Source: a virus
Lineage: Duplodnaviria > Caudoviricetes
IMG/VR virus record: IMGVR_UViG_3300005524_000111
Coordinates: 1 to 28,456 of that record
Strand: one strand, 5' to 3'
Length of the DNA stretch: 28,456 nt
Part shown: in pieces, positions 4,109-19,347 of the stretch
Layout: each line of letters starts with the position of its first letter
Numbering within the stretch: the first letter of the stretch is position 1
Made by a program: the position numbers and the translations under genes
Notes under the pieces: model-generated
Databases searched by the model: none
What the model saw: only the letters and a program-made list of their open reading frames with translations
Told to the model about the DNA's origin: nothing

Positions 4109-4660
4109 ATGTGGGCGGCTAGCTCAGTTGGTAGAGCACTTCCTCGACACGGAAGGGGTCACAGGTTCAAGTCCTGTGCCGCCCAATTCTCGCTTGCCGC
4201 CGGTTTCGCAGTCTCGTGCGCGTGGCCCTGCGCGGGCCAGCTGCCCGAGCCATCGCCGCAACCGACGCAAACGAACGCACGGCGCCCGGAGCCGTTTGCG
4301 CTCCAATTTATGACCGCCGAGATGCAGGCGCAGACGGACTCGTATAAGGAGGAGCTCGGTCAAAAGCCGTCGCATCCAGAGACGGTTCGGAGGCTTGCGT
4401 CTCTGTACCGCGCGTCCACGGCCGATGCCGACCTCAGCGACTCGATCGTCGCGAGCAGCCTGGTCGACTTCTATCGGGGTCAAGCGGAGGCCCAAGGAGC
4501 GATCCAGGACGTCCAAGCGACCCTCGATTCGATGATGCGCCTGGCGGTCCTGAACTATGCGCAGAACCAGCACATTATCGAGCTGCTTGAAGTCATTGCG
4601 GGGCGCCGGGCCGCCTCGGCAGTGCCTCATGTGGAACATCCGCGGACAGGAGGAAAATGA
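4109..4660 (+). CDS. Hypothetical helical protein; start uncertain (ATG 4109 reads through the tRNA, alternative ATG 4310)
   Basis: Long open frame with protein-like composition ending immediately before the HTH gene. Signal-like segment FSLAAGFAVSCAWPCAG just after the tRNA. Confidence 0.55.
   Translation: MWAASSVGRALPRHGRGHRFKSCAAQFSLAAGFAVSCAWPCAGQLPEPSPQPTQTNARRPEPFALQFMTAEMQAQTDSYKEELGQKPSHPETVRRLASLYRASTADADLSDSIVASSLVDFYRGQAEAQGAIQDVQATLDSMMRLAVLNYAQNQHIIELLEVIAGRRAASAVPHVEHPRTGGK
4113..4185 (+). tRNA. tRNA-Val(GAC), complete, CCA not encoded
   Basis: GGGCGGC/GCCGCCC acceptor, GCTC/GAGC D-stem, CTTCC-TCGACAC-GGAAG anticodon arm, ACAGG-TTCAAGT-CCTGT T-arm, discriminator A. Confidence 0.93.
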
Positions 4661-6190: not shown

Positions 6191-7224
6191 TGGACGTTAT
6201 TATCACTGATGCTGTAAAGAAACAAGAGAGGGCGCGGGTCCTGCTAGTGGGTCGCGCGGGCAGCGGCAAGACCTACACGATGCTGAACGTGGGGCAGCAC
6301 ATGGGCGCGCGGCTGGGTGTGATTGATTCGGAGCATCGGAGCGCCGCGCTGTATGCCGACGAGTTCCGCTTCCGGCACGTTGACATGGTCGAGCCGTCGG
6401 TCGACAACTACATCAAGGCGATTAAGGCCCTGGAGGCAGACGGCTGCGACGTAATCGGCATCGACAGTCTCTCGCATCCGTGGGAGTGGTTGACCGCGTG
6501 GGTCGATGCGGAAGCCATCCGGACAAACACGAGGAACACGGTCTCGCTCTGGAATCGTGCCGGCAAGAAGTGGAAGCAGCTATTTGACGCGATCCTTTCG
6601 AGCCGCGCGCATATCATCGCGACCGCGAGGGCCGCGACCGAATGGTCTATGGGCCGCGACGAGCAGGGAAAGCTCGTGGTTGAGAAGCTCGGTACGAAGC
6701 CGGCGATCCGTCGGGACTTCGACTTCGAGTTCACCGTAACGGGTGATCTCGACCATGAGCACACGCTGCGGATCGACAAGACGCGATGCCGGCGCCTCGA
6801 CCGGGCCGTATTCGAGCTTCCCGGCCAAGAGTTCGCGCAGATCCTGCTCGACTTCTTGAATGCCGGAGAACAGAATGGCGCGCAAGAGCCAACGCGGCGG
6901 CCTCCGGTGAACGATGCAAAGCCTCCGGTGAACAAGAAGACGCAGCCCGTGAACGAGGCCCGCGCGGGTGTGAATAACGCACAGTCTTCCGTGAACGCGC
7001 AGGATGCGAGAGAGACACATGCCGCCGTTGGCGCGCCAGCAGGCGAGAAGGCCGTCAATAGCTTCTTGTTCCGCGTGACGTCGAAGACCGGCCCCGGCTG
7101 GTCAGTCGCCCAGGTCAAGAAACTGGCGTCCGCGGAGCTGGGCGAGAGTTGGAAGTCCACGGCGACGGCCGATCAGATTGCGGCGCTCGAGGAGCGCATT
7201 AAGAATGGAGGGCGAGATGCCTAA
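6190..7224 (+). CDS. Phage AAA ATPase, Sak4/AAA_24-like recombination protein
   Basis: Walker A GRAGSGKT, VIDSE, Walker B IGIDSLSH.W, FEFTVTGDLD, IDKTRC. C-terminal linker with 7-residue 'VN' repeats. Confidence 0.85.
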   Translation: MDVIITDAVKKQERARVLLVGRAGSGKTYTMLNVGQHMGARLGVIDSEHRSAALYADEFRFRHVDMVEPSVDNYIKAIKALEADGCDVIGIDSLSHPWEWLTAWVDAEAIRTNTRNTVSLWNRAGKKWKQLFDAILSSRAHIIATARAATEWSMGRDEQGKLVVEKLGTKPAIRRDFDFEFTVTGDLDHEHTLRIDKTRCRRLDRAVFELPGQEFAQILLDFLNAGEQNGAQEPTRRPPVNDAKPPVNKKTQPVNEARAGVNNAQSSVNAQDARETHAAVGAPAGEKAVNSFLFRVTSKTGPGWSVAQVKKLASAELGESWKSTATADQIAALEERIKNGGRDA

Positions 7225-8446
7225 GAAGAAAACCGCTACCAAGCCAGCGAAGGGCACCACGACCGCATTTGAGCCTGACGCATACGTCATCCGCACAAGC
7301 GCGGCGGACGGCCGCTCGCACAATGGATTCATTTGGCCACGCGAGATCGGCGCGACCGTCGAGTGCCCGGACTGGGCGCCGACAAATGAATGTGGCAATG
7401 GCCTGCATGGCTGCCTAGACGGCGTCGGCGACTGGTCGCTATTGAGCTCGGCCCCTGACGCGCTGTGGTGGGTTATCGGTGTTCGCCGGGAGGAGTGCAT
7501 CGACCTGGGCGGCAAGGTGAAATTCCCGCGTGGGAAAATCGCTTACGCTGGCGGCATCAATGGCGCACTGCGGCAGATTGCGCAGGAGTGGAAGAGGATC
7601 GCCGACGAGGCGACCAAGGCGGCGAACGCTTCCGATGAGGCGCACACGACGGCTGATAACAGCCACGCAAGCACCGCCGGAGAGTGCAGCCATGCAAGCA
7701 CCGCCGGTAGGTACAGCCACGCAAGCACCGCCGGTAGCTCCAGCCACGCAAGCACCGCCGGAGAGTGCAGCCATGCAATCACCGCCGGAGAGTGCAGCCA
7801 TGCAAGCACCGCCGGTTGGTCCAGCCATGCAAGCACCGCCGGTAGGTACAGCCATGCAAGCACCGCCGGTAGGTACAGCCATGCAAGCACCGCCGGAGAG
7901 CACAGCCATGCAAGCACCGCCGGTAGGTACAGCCATGCAAGCACCGCCGGATATTCCAGCCATGCAAGCACCGCCGGTGTGTGCAGCCATGCAAGCACCG
8001 CCGGATATTCCAGCCATGCAAGCACCGCCGGAGAGTCCAGCCATGCAAGCACCGCCGGAGAGTCCAGCCATGCAAGCACCGCCGGAGAGTCCAGCCATGC
8101 AAGCACCGCCGGTAGGTACAGCCACGCAAGCACCGCCGGAGAGTGCAGCCATGCAAGCACCGCCGGTAGGTACAGCCACGCAAGCACCGCCGGTAAGTCC
8201 AGCCATGCAAGCACCGCCGGTAGGTACAGCCACGCAAGCACCGCCGGAGCAGGCTCCGTGTCCTGTGGCCTTGGCTTCGCCAATGCGGCACGCGCCGGCG
8301 CGGGTGGGGCGATCTGCCTCGTGCATCTCGGGGCGGATGGCGAGATCATTGCGATCCGCGCCAGCAAGGTCGGCGAGAACGGCATAAGGCCGGACGTGCT
8401 CTATCGGCTGTCCGCCGCAGGTGAGTTCGAGGAGGTCGACTCATGA
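7217..8446 (+). CDS. Phage repeat protein (DUF7666-like N-domain, 22 SHASTAGxx repeats, conserved C-cap)
   Basis: N-domain 'S.NGF.WP...ECGNGLHG...GGKVKFPRG', central nonapeptide array, C-terminal 'ASKVGENGIRPDVLYRL...GEFEEV'. Start MPKKK at 7217 after GGAGG. Confidence 0.8.
   Translation: MPKKKTATKPAKGTTTAFEPDAYVIRTSAADGRSHNGFIWPREIGATVECPDWAPTNECGNGLHGCLDGVGDWSLLSSAPDALWWVIGVRREECIDLGGKVKFPRGKIAYAGGINGALRQIAQEWKRIADEATKAANASDEAHTTADNSHASTAGECSHASTAGRYSHASTAGSSSHASTAGECSHAITAGECSHASTAGWSSHASTAGRYSHASTAGRYSHASTAGEHSHASTAGRYSHASTAGYSSHASTAGVCSHASTAGYSSHASTAGESSHASTAGESSHASTAGESSHASTAGRYSHASTAGECSHASTAGRYSHASTAGKSSHASTAGRYSHASTAGAGSVSCGLGFANAARAGAGGAICLVHLGADGEIIAIRASKVGENGIRPDVLYRLSAAGEFEEVDS
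7661..8247 (+). repeat. Coding tandem array: 22 copies of AGCCAYGCAAGCACCGCCGG at a 27-nt period with 7 variable nt
   Basis: Units start at 7661+27n through 8228; one unit reads HAITAG. Confidence 0.97.
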
Positions 8447-14883: not shown

Positions 14884-15081
14884 ATGCTTTTCAAAATACT
14901 TCACTGGACGCTGCTCCCAATCTTCGCCCTGGGCGGCACGGCGCTCGGACAGGCTTTCGGGCCGTTCATCGGGTTCGGCGTCGGCGTGGCCGGGTGGGAG
15001 CACATGGGCGAGGCTCATGACCAGGCGATCGCCGAGAAGAAGGCGAAGACGGAGACGGAGGAGAAAGCAAGTGAACATTGA
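14884..15081 (+). CDS. Small membrane protein
   Basis: TAAGGAGG RBS; hydrophobic Gly-rich N-terminal ~37 aa and a charged tail. Confidence 0.7.
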   Translation: MLFKILHWTLLPIFALGGTALGQAFGPFIGFGVGVAGWEHMGEAHDQAIAEKKAKTETEEKASEH

Positions 15082-15645: not shown

Positions 15646-16239
15646 ATGAGAGAGAGAAAGAGAGAGAGAGAGAGGGCGGGACGCATGGAGCCGGGTATAG
15701 ACGCGCAGCTCGGCGACATTCGCGAGCGATTGATGCTGCTGCTGCTTAGCGCCCTGGGCGAGGCCGTCGCTCGGCTGTCTGAAGAGGTCGGTCCATCCGC
15801 CCCGATACCTCGAGGCGCGGAGACCGCCGCCGCGAAACCCGCCTCCTCGAATCAGCCGGCTGCCAGCCGCGGCGAACGCGCCAAATGTGCAACGTGCGGA
15901 ATAAGGCGTCCGAACAAGCGCAGCTCATCTGGGATCTGCGCGACGTGTCGTCGGGTGAGCAGCCGGTCGCGGTACAACGCGCAGGCCCCTGGTCCTGCCG
16001 CGGACGAGCGCGAGGAGTCCGAGCCGGTCATGGACGCAACGGTTCCCGCGCCTGTCCCGTTCCTCACTCGCGGCGCCCCGCTCCGCAAGTGCGCCGGCTG
16101 CTTGTGCCGCACGCTCGACATCCGGACCGGCATCTGTCGCGTCTGCACCGTGGAGCCCGTAGGCGAGCTGCCTGTGAAGAAGCTCGAACCTGGCGTGAGC
16201 GAAGGCGCGTATGAAATCTATCCGGGCATAGGGTATTAG
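15646..16239 (+). CDS. Hypothetical protein with two CxxC...CxxC zinc modules; last gene of the early operon
   Basis: GAGGAG RBS before ATG 15646 (alternative ATG 15685); CATC..CATC and CAGC..CRVC. Confidence 0.6.
   Translation: MRERKRERERAGRMEPGIDAQLGDIRERLMLLLLSALGEAVARLSEEVGPSAPIPRGAETAAAKPASSNQPAASRGERAKCATCGIRRPNKRSSSGICATCRRVSSRSRYNAQAPGPAADEREESEPVMDATVPAPVPFLTRGAPLRKCAGCLCRTLDIRTGICRVCTVEPVGELPVKKLEPGVSEGAYEIYPGIGY
15649..15674 (+). repeat. (AG)4-AA-(AG)8 simple sequence repeat
   Basis: Read directly from the sequence, immediately after ATG 15646. Confidence 0.9.
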
Positions 16240-16799
16240 TGCATATCGACCGGCTTCACCCAGCTGTAACCCATCGACGCCAGCCTCTTCGTTAACCGAT
16301 CCTCGCTCGCCGAATCCCTGGCGACGATAAGCTCGCCGGTCAGATAATAGAGGACGTCGGTGAGGCGCCGGCGCCACAATCCGAGCAAATGCCGGTGACG
16401 GCATCCGCAGTCGTAGAGCGGCATCGCCATGGCGGCGCTGCGCTTATTGCCCTTGTTGTGCTGTATGCCGGGACTGCCGACAAGCGGCGCCGTCCCGCAG
16501 TTGTATAGCAGATCGACAAACGCGCCGAGCTCGTGCCGGTCCGCCTTCCGGATAAGAGTCTGCGCGAGCCGTATGCGCGGCTTGAGGTCCTCCAGGAGCA
16601 GCTGCTCCGCCTCCTCGACAGTTAGCCCGTCCTTGAAGCGGCCGGTCCGCACCTCGTCCCGGCTCAGTACGTGCCCGAATCCGACGGTAAGGACGCCGGG
16701 CGCGTCGGCGGCGCCGTGATACGGATAAGACTTGCCTCCGATGACCCCGCCGCCGAAGGACTCGTATCCTTTGATGATGGCGATCAACGGATCCGTCAT
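16236..16799 (-). CDS. Endolysin, GH24 phage lysozyme
   Basis: IIKGYES (Glu), D-x5-T in DAPGVLTVGFGH, LTVEEAEQLL.EDL, AFVDLLYNCG, LLGLWRRR. No N-terminal signal or SAR segment. Confidence 0.92.
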   Translation of the reverse strand: MTDPLIAIIKGYESFGGGVIGGKSYPYHGAADAPGVLTVGFGHVLSRDEVRTGRFKDGLTVEEAEQLLLEDLKPRIRLAQTLIRKADRHELGAFVDLLYNCGTAPLVGSPGIQHNKGNKRSAAMAMPLYDCGCRHRHLLGLWRRRLTDVLYYLTGELIVARDSASEDRLTKRLASMGYSWVKPVDMH

Positions 16800-16811
16800 G
16801 AGAGCCCCCGA

Positions 16812-17441
16812 TCAGCGCAGGTCTGGCTTCGAGCCGAGGATCTTCTTGTCGACGTAGTGCCCAGTTCCGAGCAACGCGCCGGGCACCGCCAGCGACAGGA
16901 CCCACTCGGGGATCTTGTACGAGTGCTGATAATACATCTGCGATGCACCGTCGATTATCAGGCAAAGCAGGATGGCGGCGGCGCTGCTGTAGCCCGCGAG
17001 TCTGATATGCCTTGGCGTGGCCTCCGCCTGCAGGCGCGCCTGGATCCTTCTCTTGTGCTCTTCGACGTGTCGCGGGCGGTTGCTCAGGCCGCACCGCAGG
17101 ACGAGTTCGACGAGCTCCTGGTCGTGGAACGGTTTCTTCGTGATAAACCCTGCTGCTCCGCTATTCATACACTCTTGCTTTAACTCCTCATTGTGCGATC
17201 CGGTGAGAACGATGACGGGGGTACTGGTCCTTTCGACGATCCGGTGAAGCGTTTCGAGTCCCTGGCTGTCCTTCAGCCCCAGGTCGAGGATGATCACGTC
17301 ATAGCGCTTGTCTCGTAGCTTCGTGAACACATCCGCCACGGAATCGGCTGTGTCGACCTCGAAGCCGTCCTCCTTCCTGAAGAAGAGCTTGACCAGGAGC
17401 GCGAAGGTGTCGCTGTCTTCAGCAGAGAGGATTATTAGCAT
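16812..17441 (-). CDS. Response-regulator receiver domain fused to a two-helix membrane segment (candidate REC-holin)
   Basis: REC residues ~1-117 with E8-D9, D53 (VIILDLGL.DSQGL), T80 (PVIVLTG), K102 (GAAGFITK). Hydrophobic segments at ~148-166 and ~177-197, then a charged tail. Confidence refers to the domain architecture; the holin function is inferred. Confidence 0.85.
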   Translation of the reverse strand: MLIILSAEDSDTFALLVKLFFRKEDGFEVDTADSVADVFTKLRDKRYDVIILDLGLKDSQGLETLHRIVERTSTPVIVLTGSHNEELKQECMNSGAAGFITKKPFHDQELVELVLRCGLSNRPRHVEEHKRRIQARLQAEATPRHIRLAGYSSAAAILLCLIIDGASQMYYQHSYKIPEWVLSLAVPGALLGTGHYVDKKILGSKPDLR

Positions 17442-17734
17442 TACCCGAGGGCCCCGAGCTCCTGGGCGACCTCGGCGACGTCCTTGGCGATCTCAGCCGC
17501 CTCGGCCGCTGCGGCCTCAACGGTGGCGATCTCCGCGGCATCGAATGGGCTGCCGAGCAAGTCGTTCGCCGCGACCAGCAGCTTATTGACCCAGCCGGCG
17601 GGCAGCTTGGCCGCCAGCGGTGCCAGGCGCGTCTCGATCGCCTCGATCTTCGCGATTATCTGCGGGAGCTTCGGATGGTCTTTCAGGAAGGACCGAAAAA
17701 AGGACTTGAGCATGCCTGTGGCGGATAGAAACAT
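17441..17734 (-). CDS. Small Ala-rich helical protein with a cationic amphipathic N-terminus (lysis-cassette accessory?)
   Basis: TAAGGAGG RBS; its TAA overlaps the ATG of the REC gene; MLKSFFRSFLK. Confidence 0.7.
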   Translation of the reverse strand: MFLSATGMLKSFFRSFLKDHPKLPQIIAKIEAIETRLAPLAAKLPAGWVNKLLVAANDLLGSPFDAAEIATVEAAAAEAAEIAKDVAEVAQELGALG

Positions 17735-17743
17735 GGTGCCTCC

Positions 17744-18004
17744 TTAGTTTGAGGGCGGCGCGACGTATGCCGGCTGCCCGCTCGCGTTCAACGGATAGTT
17801 GTCGATGACCTTGTAGGTGTCGGACGGGTCGATCGTCCAGACGAAAGTGGCCGCGCCGGCGGGGAGTCCGGTCGGTGCGGTGTCCGAGACCAGGAGCGTC
17901 GCCGGCGCAGTGCCGGGTGCGGTCGAATAATAGACCAGATACCGCTCGGCGCGGGCCGGCGCGGCGAGCATGATGGCTGCGAGTGAAGAAAGAATTAAAC
18001 GCAT
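17744..18004 (-). CDS. Small secreted protein (Sec signal peptide)
   Basis: GGAGGAG RBS, MRLILSSLAAIMLAAPARA with an A-x-A cleavage site. Confidence 0.7.
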   Translation of the reverse strand: MRLILSSLAAIMLAAPARAERYLVYYSTAPGTAPATLLVSDTAPTGLPAGAATFVWTIDPSDTYKVIDNYPLNASGQPAYVAPPSN

Positions 18005-19347
18005 GGCGGCAGCTCCTCCCAGTCTCCAATGCAATAGCCGGCGGTCGATTCTTGCCCGGCGGAGACGCCCAGGCACATCTGATCGAACGTGCGCTCGTCA
18101 CGGACGACCTGGCGGTCTTCCGCCGTCATCGTGAGCCATCGGTCGTATTGCTCGACCGGCGAGAGCTTGCGTCCCGTTCCGCATTCGATGCCGGTCCGGT
18201 ATTCGCGGAAAGCCGTCGCGAAGCGGGATTGCTCATCGTTGCGCTTGAGGGCGATCATCTGCGCGGCATTCAGGCGCTCGTCCATGCAATACGGCTCGGT
18301 CTCGGTCATCATGCCCAATGCCCGGAGCATTTGGCAATGTGCGACCATGAAGCCGCCGTACTGCGCATGGAGATCAGAGGACCTTTTCAGGGCGATAAAC
18401 GGAACATTGGGGGTCGTGGACAGGTTAATCGTGACGCCCGCGAAGCCAGACTGCGCGGCCAATGTCGCGGAGCCGATAAATCCTGCCGCCCCGCCTGACG
18501 TCGTGATCGTGCCCAACGTGTTCGAGGGAGACTGGACGAGGCAGATGCCTCCGCCTCCGCCTCCGCCAGCTCCGCCCGAGGTGCTGGCCGCGCTGCCGCC
18601 GTTGCCGCCGTTAAGGAGCACGCTCCCGCTATTGGTGATGGACACAGCGCTGTACAATCCGAATGTTCCGCCCGCGCCCCCACCGCCGCCGCCCGCTTGT
18701 CCACCTGCAGCTGGAAGGCCGCCGCCGCCCCGGGATCCCAATGTCCCGCCGATCGAGATGGCGCCTTTCGCGATAAATCGCACGAAGGCCCCGCCGTACC
18801 CTCCGCTCCCGCCGTTGTTGCTAGAGTCGCCCATACCCGCGCTGCCGCCGCTCCCTGCGCCAAGCGCCAGGTTGACGGGTCCCCCTCCCCGCGGAAATAC
18901 GGTCGCGTTGGGGCTTCCGCCGTTGCCGCCGGCGCCCCCGTTACCGCCTCCGGCTCCTCCGAACGTGGACGTACTGATCGCGGAGTCGCCGACGGTAACG
19001 CCGCCGCCCGACGGGCCGCCGCCGCACTGGCTGCACTGGAACGCGCTGGTGCCCCATTTCCCACCCACCCCGCCCGAATAGCCGTTCCCGTCGCCGAGCA
19101 CCGTGCCGCTGATGGTGATCGTTCCCGTGGCGTTCACGACCGTCCCGGTGAACACCGTCCAGGTCGTCGACGCGGACTGGACGAAATTGGTCGAGTTTAT
19201 CTGCCGCGGCGAAGTGTCGGTCACCGCACCGACGGTGACGGCGCTATCGCTGCCGTCGCCGCCGATGCGGGCAGGGTTGGCGACGAGCGCCAGCGCAGGC
19301 CCGGCGCAGAGAATGGTGGCGAGCACTGCCGCGAGAATCTTTGTCAT
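17995..19347 (-). CDS. Glycine-rich tail-fibre/adhesin-like protein with an N-terminal signal peptide
   Basis: MTKILAAVLATILCAGPALA, then GGDGSD...GGAGGGNGGAGGNGG...GGGGGGAGG blocks, and an unrelated ~130-aa charged C-terminal domain. Confidence 0.8.
   Translation of the reverse strand: MTKILAAVLATILCAGPALALVANPARIGGDGSDSAVTVGAVTDTSPRQINSTNFVQSASTTWTVFTGTVVNATGTITISGTVLGDGNGYSGGVGGKWGTSAFQCSQCGGGPSGGGVTVGDSAISTSTFGGAGGGNGGAGGNGGSPNATVFPRGGGPVNLALGAGSGGSAGMGDSSNNGGSGGYGGAFVRFIAKGAISIGGTLGSRGGGGLPAAGGQAGGGGGGAGGTFGLYSAVSITNSGSVLLNGGNGGSAASTSGGAGGGGGGGICLVQSPSNTLGTITTSGGAAGFIGSATLAAQSGFAGVTINLSTTPNVPFIALKRSSDLHAQYGGFMVAHCQMLRALGMMTETEPYCMDERLNAAQMIALKRNDEQSRFATAFREYRTGIECGTGRKLSPVEQYDRWLTMTAEDRQVVRDERTFDQMCLGVSAGQESTAGYCIGDWEELPPCV

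Follow-up and report, generated by a model that had tools for sequence, protein, structure and literature searches.

A prophage late gene joining a CheY-like receiver to a hydrophobic tail beside the endolysin: a candidate phosphorylation-tuned lysis protein

Organization of the receiver-tail gene

The gene P0001, located on the minus strand of the window (the whole stretch of 28,456 nucleotides analyzed, from the IMG/VR virus record IMGVR_UViG_3300005524_000111), was found to encode a complete CheY-like receiver continued in the same chain by a hydrophobic hairpin, and to lie directly before the endolysin gene. This fusion is real and unusual, and its tail matches no described holin family. 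Judged from its sequence, P0001 is likely a variant of holin-endolysin lysis control, behaving like a holin or a holin regulator with a built-in phospho-switch. The more specific proposal, that it occupies the place of the holin and that its triggering is tuned by host phosphorylation of Asp53, was given an even chance of being correct. The parts of the gene are the following:

16812..17441, minus strand: P0001, 209 aa, composed of a receiver, a linker of helical type, a hydrophobic hairpin and a charged tail (ORF translation, Pfam)
17100..17432, minus strand: residues 4-114, forming a CheY-like receiver domain with D53 (17283-17285) as phospho-acceptor (PF00072, residue check, Atlas model matching receivers)
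17001..17081, minus strand: basic linker, residues 121-147, predicted helical at 123-139 (charge count; low-confidence single-sequence model)
16944..17000, minus strand: hydrophobic segment 1, residues 148-166, likely transmembrane (KD19 1.74)
16848..16904, minus strand: segment 2, weakly hydrophobic, residues 180-198, containing G188-x3-G192; it is uncertain whether it spans the membrane (KD19 0.96)

The Pfam profile PF00072 matched residues 4-114 almost from end to end (E=6.7e-23; score 81.4 bits, cut-off 30.2; the match runs from position 1 to position 110 of a profile of 111). The original prediction had described a receiver with all of its phosphorylation residues intact, and E8, D9, D53 (codon GAC), T80 and K102 were indeed found, together with F99 as the aromatic switch. 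D9, D53 and K102 were invariant across the 18 receiver sequences aligned, the conserved lysine of P0001 falling on K102 or K103 depending on the alignment, and the D+4 position was occupied by Lys57 instead of the usual Pro. As had also been predicted, no DNA-binding or enzymatic output domain follows: after residue 114 only weak noise was obtained with Pfam, PHROGs, Atlas and a search of representative sequences. CheY, Spo0F and DivK are single-domain response regulators; P0001 shares with them a complete receiver and the lack of an output domain, but it differs in having a hydrophobic hairpin at its C-terminal end and in being encoded among the late genes of a phage.

The linker (8 K/R and 3 D/E between residues 121 and 147) is basic and the C-terminal tail (4 K/R and 2 D/E between residues 197 and 209) is charged, in agreement with the prediction. 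Of the two hydrophobic segments that it proposed, the first is likely transmembrane, whereas the second is doubtful. The single-sequence fold of the protein had a pLDDT of 46 overall, and the helices that it placed at 153-173 and 179-192 were below 50. The tail matched none of the described holin families in Pfam and PHROGs. Separate initiation of the tail was unsupported, the linker having no in-frame start.

Within the late operon, as predicted, the gene is closely linked to its neighbours: its start shares one base with the stop of the upstream 97-aa gene (TAATG), and 12 nt separate its stop from the endolysin start. The identical P0001 sequence was present in three other assemblies, and contigs of runs X3 (16321-17223) and X4 (16421-17151), from an independent study, bridge receiver, tail and lysin with zero differences over the pieces covered; the fusion is therefore no assembly artefact. 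One A14E-type difference appeared in a single shallow contig and may be an error. The GC content was 0.561 in the receiver part, 0.626 in the tail and 0.633 in the lysin, and the lower value of the receiver part suggests later acquisition. No sigma-70 promoter was found at the locus, and the sole terminator-like match was within chance.

The endolysin and the membrane proteins of the prophage

The window belongs to a provirus record (G001) of 40,922 bp and 93% completeness, the remaining late operon of which carries terminases, portal, protease, capsid, connector and tail genes; an integrase is also present. The endolysin closes the late operon and faces the early operon. The genes that bear on lysis besides P0001 are the following:

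16236..16799, minus strand: GH24 endolysin, 187 aa, last late-operon gene, no N-terminal hydrophobic anchor (PF00959, phrog_7)
17441..17734, minus strand: 97-aa amphipathic gene, in the position that the DxDxDG-motif gene occupies in related cassettes, with weak homology to it (hhalign probability 1.6%, E=0.03)
17744..18004, minus strand: 86-aa gene, signal-peptide-like N-terminus, no family (ORF list, Pfam, PHROGs)
17995..19347, minus strand: 450-aa Gly-rich gene, signal-peptide-like N-terminus, upstream edge of the cassette, no Pfam family (KD19 2.47 at residue 4)
14884..15081, plus strand: 65-aa early-strand ORF, two hydrophobic segments (KD 1.57 and 1.17) and charged tail, the only alternative holin candidate found (phrog_126 holin/antiholin, E=0.066)

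The endolysin matched PF00959 (E=5.4e-12; 46.6 bits against a cut-off of 22.3), and its residues E13, D32 and T38, invariant in six homologues, correspond to the pattern Glu, Asp-x5-Thr, which we take to be the GH24 triad. Neither a signal nor a SAR segment had been expected in it, and this was upheld: the catalytic Glu stands at residue 13 and the best KD19 window reached 1.05 at residue 91. A soluble endolysin without a hydrophobic N-terminus needs a holin, and the lysin of this prophage, which has no such N-terminus, must therefore be served by one.

The ORFs of the prophage between 35 and 260 aa with KD19 of at least 1.5 were screened for this function. Besides P0001, the real late-strand genes reaching this value were the 86-aa gene with the signal-peptide-like start and two structural genes of marginal score, and no better late-strand holin candidate than P0001 was found among the ORFs screened. 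The original prediction had seen no other clear holin in the cassette; the sole alternative found is the 65-aa ORF, which lies outside the cassette and on the opposite strand. Its presence, together with the weak second segment of P0001, lends some weight to a different role for P0001, namely that of a phospho-controlled regulator of lysis (an antiholin or a late accessory holin) binding a partner such as the 65-aa ORF or the 97-aa protein. This role is considered unlikely: the 65-aa ORF belongs to the early strand and is distant from the lysin, its match reaching only E=0.066, and the 97-aa protein has no segment of transmembrane grade (KD 1.08).

The likely host

The HtrA gene flanking the prophage was 100% identical to that of a genome labelled Proteobacteria (G002) and 46% identical to that of a genome labelled Ca. 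Obscuribacterales (G003). The relatives drawn for G002 fell within the class draw of G003 in 10 of 10 cases, and 8 of 10 were among the matches listed for the order of G042, a protein of which is named Ca. Obscuribacterales. From these identities and this placement we infer that the host group is likely the Obscuribacterales. G002 contains 48 HisKA matches and 42 receiver matches, its best receivers being about 35-38% identical to that of P0001, but the P0001 gene is absent from it. The prophage itself has no match to the kinase ATPase domain (HATPase_c) in the whole provirus record, which extends the earlier statement that the window encodes no histidine kinase.

The same position in related prophage cassettes

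A search with the lysin alignment gave two non-self metagenome loci. One of them (L033), with a 42%-identical lysozyme, was rejected, its context being chromosomal and no cassette being present. The other (L034) belongs to a prophage with the order tail fibre, 104-aa amphipathic gene, 76-aa two-TM gene and lysin. When 401 genomes of the host class were searched, 44 had a lysozyme match. This search gave 30 loci, many of which were not phage genes, and no receiver was found within 1.5 kb at any of the 30. Further cassettes were obtained by searching 107 genomes of the host order with alignments of the amphipathic proteins and of the membrane proteins that follow them (hereafter slot proteins).

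In total, an amphipathic gene of the DxDxDG type was found beside a stand-alone two-segment membrane gene in eight cassettes (L034, L065, L066, L067, L069, L101, L104 and L113). The lysin was of the GH24 family in six of them; another had a weak SLT match, and the last cassette ran off its contig. L065 also has a counterpart of the 304-aa upstream gene of the window (E=1.7e-25); among other matches to this gene (L114-L117), no cassette was present at L114, L116 and L117 as examined. Most matches to the amphipathic family corresponded to a chromosomal paralogue and not to cassettes. The slot proteins, like the tail of P0001, matched no described holin family.

P0001 occupies the position between the amphipathic gene and the lysin just as the slot proteins do, the 97-aa gene being a weak match to the amphipathic family, and the synteny of the eight related cassettes lends support to its identity as a holin-slot protein. 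The class II-like holin tail of the original prediction is in this way strengthened by position; it is weakened by the absence of a family match, by the poor second segment and by a homology that is suggestive only (see below). An extra small gene lies between slot protein and lysin in four of the eight cassettes, a point in favor of the regulator role; against this role, the slot protein of L034 overlaps the lysin start directly, with no other membrane gene between them.

No receiver was found in the eight cassettes, although for L034 this was established by inspection only. The tail might accordingly be the holin and the receiver a passenger, brought in by a recent chance fusion and phosphorylated with no effect on timing. 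None of the eight related cassettes needs a receiver, the provirus has no cognate kinase, and the searches gave no divergent orthologues that could show selection, all of which fit such an origin. Nevertheless, we hold it to be very unlikely, given that all the catalytic residues have been kept, though the nearest host-like receivers are only about 35-38% identical, and that the pairing of a receiver with a membrane protein recurs in unrelated phages.

The amphipathic DxDxDG protein, of 100-130 aa, was present in all eight related cassettes (for example at L034 3309-3623, L065 7359-7664, L066 6758-7102, L067 5497-5898 and L069 6855-7184) and has chromosomal paralogues (L075-L100); 32 of the 107 genomes of the order were matched. 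No spanin was recognised in the prophage, and for this reason the amphipathic protein is a candidate outer-membrane disruptor. The stand-alone slot proteins, for their part, carry acidic N-terminal extensions with Cys and His where P0001 has its receiver (L077 1776-2147, L107 1486-1872, L065 7684-8007, L069 7278-7574 and L079 1141-1386). These extensions are possibly a metal- or redox-sensing input.

Comparison of the tail with the slot proteins

The tail was ranked against 2536 distinct ORFs from 93 loci. The slot protein of L077 came first (z 7.1), its score being reached by 0 of 3000 full shuffles and 5 of 3000 windowed shuffles, and that of L065 came seventh (z 4.1). Both alignments ran collinearly from the linker through segment 1 and the loop into segment 2, and the segment of the slot proteins aligned to segment 2 had KD19 values of 1.36-2.11, compared with 0.96 in P0001. 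A profile seeded with the tail and the L077 and L065 proteins led to a new cassette, L107/L113 (E=3e-18). When the tail was compared by hhalign with three slot proteins, E was 3.5e-4 and the probability 37%.

Other comparisons were negative. In the reverse test, a slot profile built without P0001 ranked it 8th of 2537, which was not significant (E=4.2); the score against this profile was reached by 43 of 3000 windowed shuffles, though by only 1 of 3000 full shuffles. A five-sequence slot profile did not match the tail (probability 0.2%). The L107 slot protein, 56% identical to that of L077, had no resemblance to the tail (z -0.2), and the other five of the seven slot proteins in the ranking were near background; the slot proteins differ from one another to the same degree (z about 3). 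A resemblance of the tail to the 76-aa protein of L034 (E=0.25, z 1-3) was discarded, being no better than that of the PB15 holin used as a control. The case for a common origin of tail and slot proteins is hence suggestive only.

Close relatives were sought in several collections. No true homologue of the tail was present among 1.84 billion representatives, where it found itself and two repeat-driven matches, and the Atlas search gave no usable match. A protein search with full P0001 returned itself and 13 generic receivers, and one with the L065 slot protein returned itself alone. Searches of viral contigs with P0001, the lysin, the lysin alignment and the alignment of the 304-aa gene all led to the same prophage. 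Stand-alone two-segment proteins occupy the slot in related cassettes, while the exact fusion is a singleton in the searches made.

Receivers beside lysis genes in other phages

Eight annotated phage records obtained from receiver searches were opened. In four of them (V22, A5, PB15 and XX1924, all from Alteromonas phages) the lysis cassette contained or adjoined a stand-alone receiver, which has a coiled-coil membrane gene as its neighbour and, unlike in P0001, is not fused to it; in print these receivers are treated only as auxiliary genes. The receivers of the other four were host-type two-component genes and were not linked to lysis. The order in V22 and A5 was coil gene, receiver, Rz-like gene, overlapping lipoprotein-like ORF and two-TM gene. 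In A5 the annotated endolysin comes next, and relatives of V22 among the viral contigs kept this order with different lysins. P0001 and V22 have receivers that are only about 29% identical. The order found in PB15 and XX1924 was coil-plus-anchor gene, receiver, M15 peptidase or DUF5675 gene and holin (GTA_holin_3TM in PB15). The genes annotated as hypothetical around the CheY-like gene of V22 and A5 (L007 4603-6272, L013 3631-5745) resemble an unannotated lysis cassette.

A motif scan of IMG/VR for the receiver subfamily of P0001 gave 24 loci, of which 11 without a complete motif ORF were dropped and 13 kept. The gene after the receiver encoded a coiled coil with a C-terminal anchor in 11 of the 13, compared with a background of 18 in 499 ORFs, several of these loci appearing to be related. 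A phage kinase was present in seven, and holin, amidase, hydrolase or Rz-like genes lay within 2.5 kb in at least three (Pfam on 50 hand-picked ORFs of the 89 listed). In none of the 13 was the receiver fused to a membrane part. A profile of the receiver partners found those of PB15 and XX1924 (E 7e-5 and 3e-4) and ranked the N4 pinholin gp63 4th of 2539 (E=0.016), where coiled-coil bias is possible. With the same profile P0001 was not reported at E values up to 50, which places its tail outside the coil-plus-anchor partner family. By this comparison, P0001 would be a separate solution, in which the receiver has been joined to a different membrane protein.

Some viral contigs had features of their own. 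Seven (L122, L127, L129, L133, L139, L140 and L141, six of about 170-240 kb and one of 62 kb) contained a histidine kinase and receivers, followed in six by a coil-plus-anchor gene. Receiver-PAS fusion genes came directly after Rz-like, lipoprotein-like and amidase/hydrolase genes at L126 2342-3250 and L134 1687-2691. In a 191-kb viral contig (L019 2543-3426), the coil-plus-anchor gene overlaps the receiver, and no lysin was seen nearby.

These surveys bear on two of the alternatives. The regulator role keeps some weight because receivers coexist with separate holin genes in PB15 and XX1924, as they also do in V22 and A5, and because two-protein holin systems are documented in the available texts on N4 gp62 and mycobacteriophage LysF1a. 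The other alternative is that P0001 acts as a membrane-anchored phosphate sink, or decoy, on host two-component signalling, and that the lysis region is simply a common landing place for extra genes. That the fusion is a singleton and that the GC of its receiver points to later acquisition would agree with this, as would the fact that, in the text available, the receivers of V22 and A5 are classified as auxiliary genes of class II and their neighbours as hypothetical (PMC7289586, PMC10579305); besides, seven of the 13 viral receiver loci have their own kinase and most showed no nearby lysis gene among the ORFs scanned. The idea is distinctly unlikely, nevertheless: the prophage would then be left without a late-strand holin, the slot in which the tail lies is conserved, two of its occupants being collinear with the tail on alignment, and the gene is coupled on both sides in the late operon.

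Proposed mechanism and relation to known lysis systems

The timing of a holin is generally attributed to its own sequence, to membrane energy and, in a few phages, to superinfection signals. Under the preferred proposal of a phosphorylation-tuned holin-slot protein, the hairpin of P0001 would insert N-in/C-in, the receiver staying in the cytoplasm according to the positive-inside rule. The protein would accumulate and form holes large enough for the soluble GH24 lysin. D53 could be phosphorylated by one of the many kinases of the host, to judge from the HisKA matches in G002, or by acetyl-phosphate, and dimerisation of the receiver would be relayed through the helix at 123-139 to the hairpin, shifting the trigger time. 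As for the direction of the shift, a marginal preference was given to phosphorylation holding a pre-trigger dimer and so delaying lysis. The fusion itself looks like an event particular to one lineage, uniting two components that are encoded side by side, as separate genes, in other phages. In a wider view, whose probability we put a little short of even, this one-chain phosphorylation-gated holin is the fused form of a widespread and undescribed module, made of a receiver and a holin- or pinholin-like membrane protein and accompanied in some cases by a phage kinase, which has wrongly been counted among the auxiliary metabolic genes.

Class II holins are small, with two transmembrane segments and a charged C-terminal tail, and are encoded beside a soluble endolysin without a signal. 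P0001 shares with them the adjacency to the lysin and the charged tail, but it has no family match and its second segment is weak. The timing of T4 holin T and antiholin RI is controlled by a signal on a soluble domain; P0001 would likewise couple lysis timing to a soluble domain, although in T4 the signal is periplasmic. We know of no class II holin, nor of any T/RI system, with a phospho-acceptor domain.

The N4 system offers a closer parallel as far as the available text describes it (bioRxiv 10.1101/2025.11.12.688109; PMC12642591). There, gp63 is a pinholin formed by a coil and a C-terminal anchor, in which a cytoplasmic helical domain beside the membrane anchor controls lysis timing, and gp62 is a late-triggering holin with two TM segments, N-in/C-in, that adjoins the lysin. 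The "Receiver domain" of gp63 in version 1 was a functional label, later changed to "LIN domain" (PMC12642591). Unlike P0001, the gp63 domain does not have a CheY-like fold and N4 uses a SAR endolysin, and the tail of P0001 resembled neither gp62 (z -0.05) nor gp63 (z 0.67). In mycobacteriophages, LysF1a and LysF1b are presented as two cooperating holin-like proteins, and LysF1a, a two-TM N-in/C-in protein of the lysis cassette that is neither pure holin nor antiholin, resembles what is proposed for P0001; in the text available, the pair differs in having no receiver and in the envelope of the host (PMC13056207). For phage R8W, an endolysin (g43), a holin (g46) and a "PhoB" (g48) are given in the accessible part of PMC8228385. 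A cREC domain is named in a figure legend of PMC7824862, in the available text of which the word "holin" is absent. The literature searched in full text, most of it outside subscription journals, contained no description of a receiver-holin fusion or of a phosphorylation-gated holin, in line with the novelty that the original prediction had claimed.

If the proposal is true, host phospho-signalling would be a new post-translational input to the lysis clock. A role in lysis would be predicted for the receivers of the four cultured Alteromonas phages, which are genetically tractable, and a signal-controlled lysis part would become available for the engineering of laboratory strains. Moreover, cassettes have been outlined for the phages of a little-studied bacterial group.

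Other features of the prophage

The prophage borders a tRNA-Val(GAC) gene at 4112-4186 of the window. Its other end, before the integrase (L003, about 2385-2450), has a diverged tRNA-like stretch in place of an exact repeat, and a single 28-nt probe did not reveal an exact att core. On the plus strand, positions 7178-8446 of the window encode a protein of 422 aa whose N-terminus is DUF7666-like and which contains many HASTAG repeats, each of 11 residues, arranged in tandem. Finally, signal-peptide-like starts, which are odd for virion proteins, were observed on late tail-region and Gly-rich genes just before the lysis cassette, both in the window (17995-19347 and 17744-18004, minus strand) and in related Obscuribacterales prophages (L065 3096-4664 and 5379-6860, L069 3859-6120, L104 5475-8603 and L107 2300-3118).
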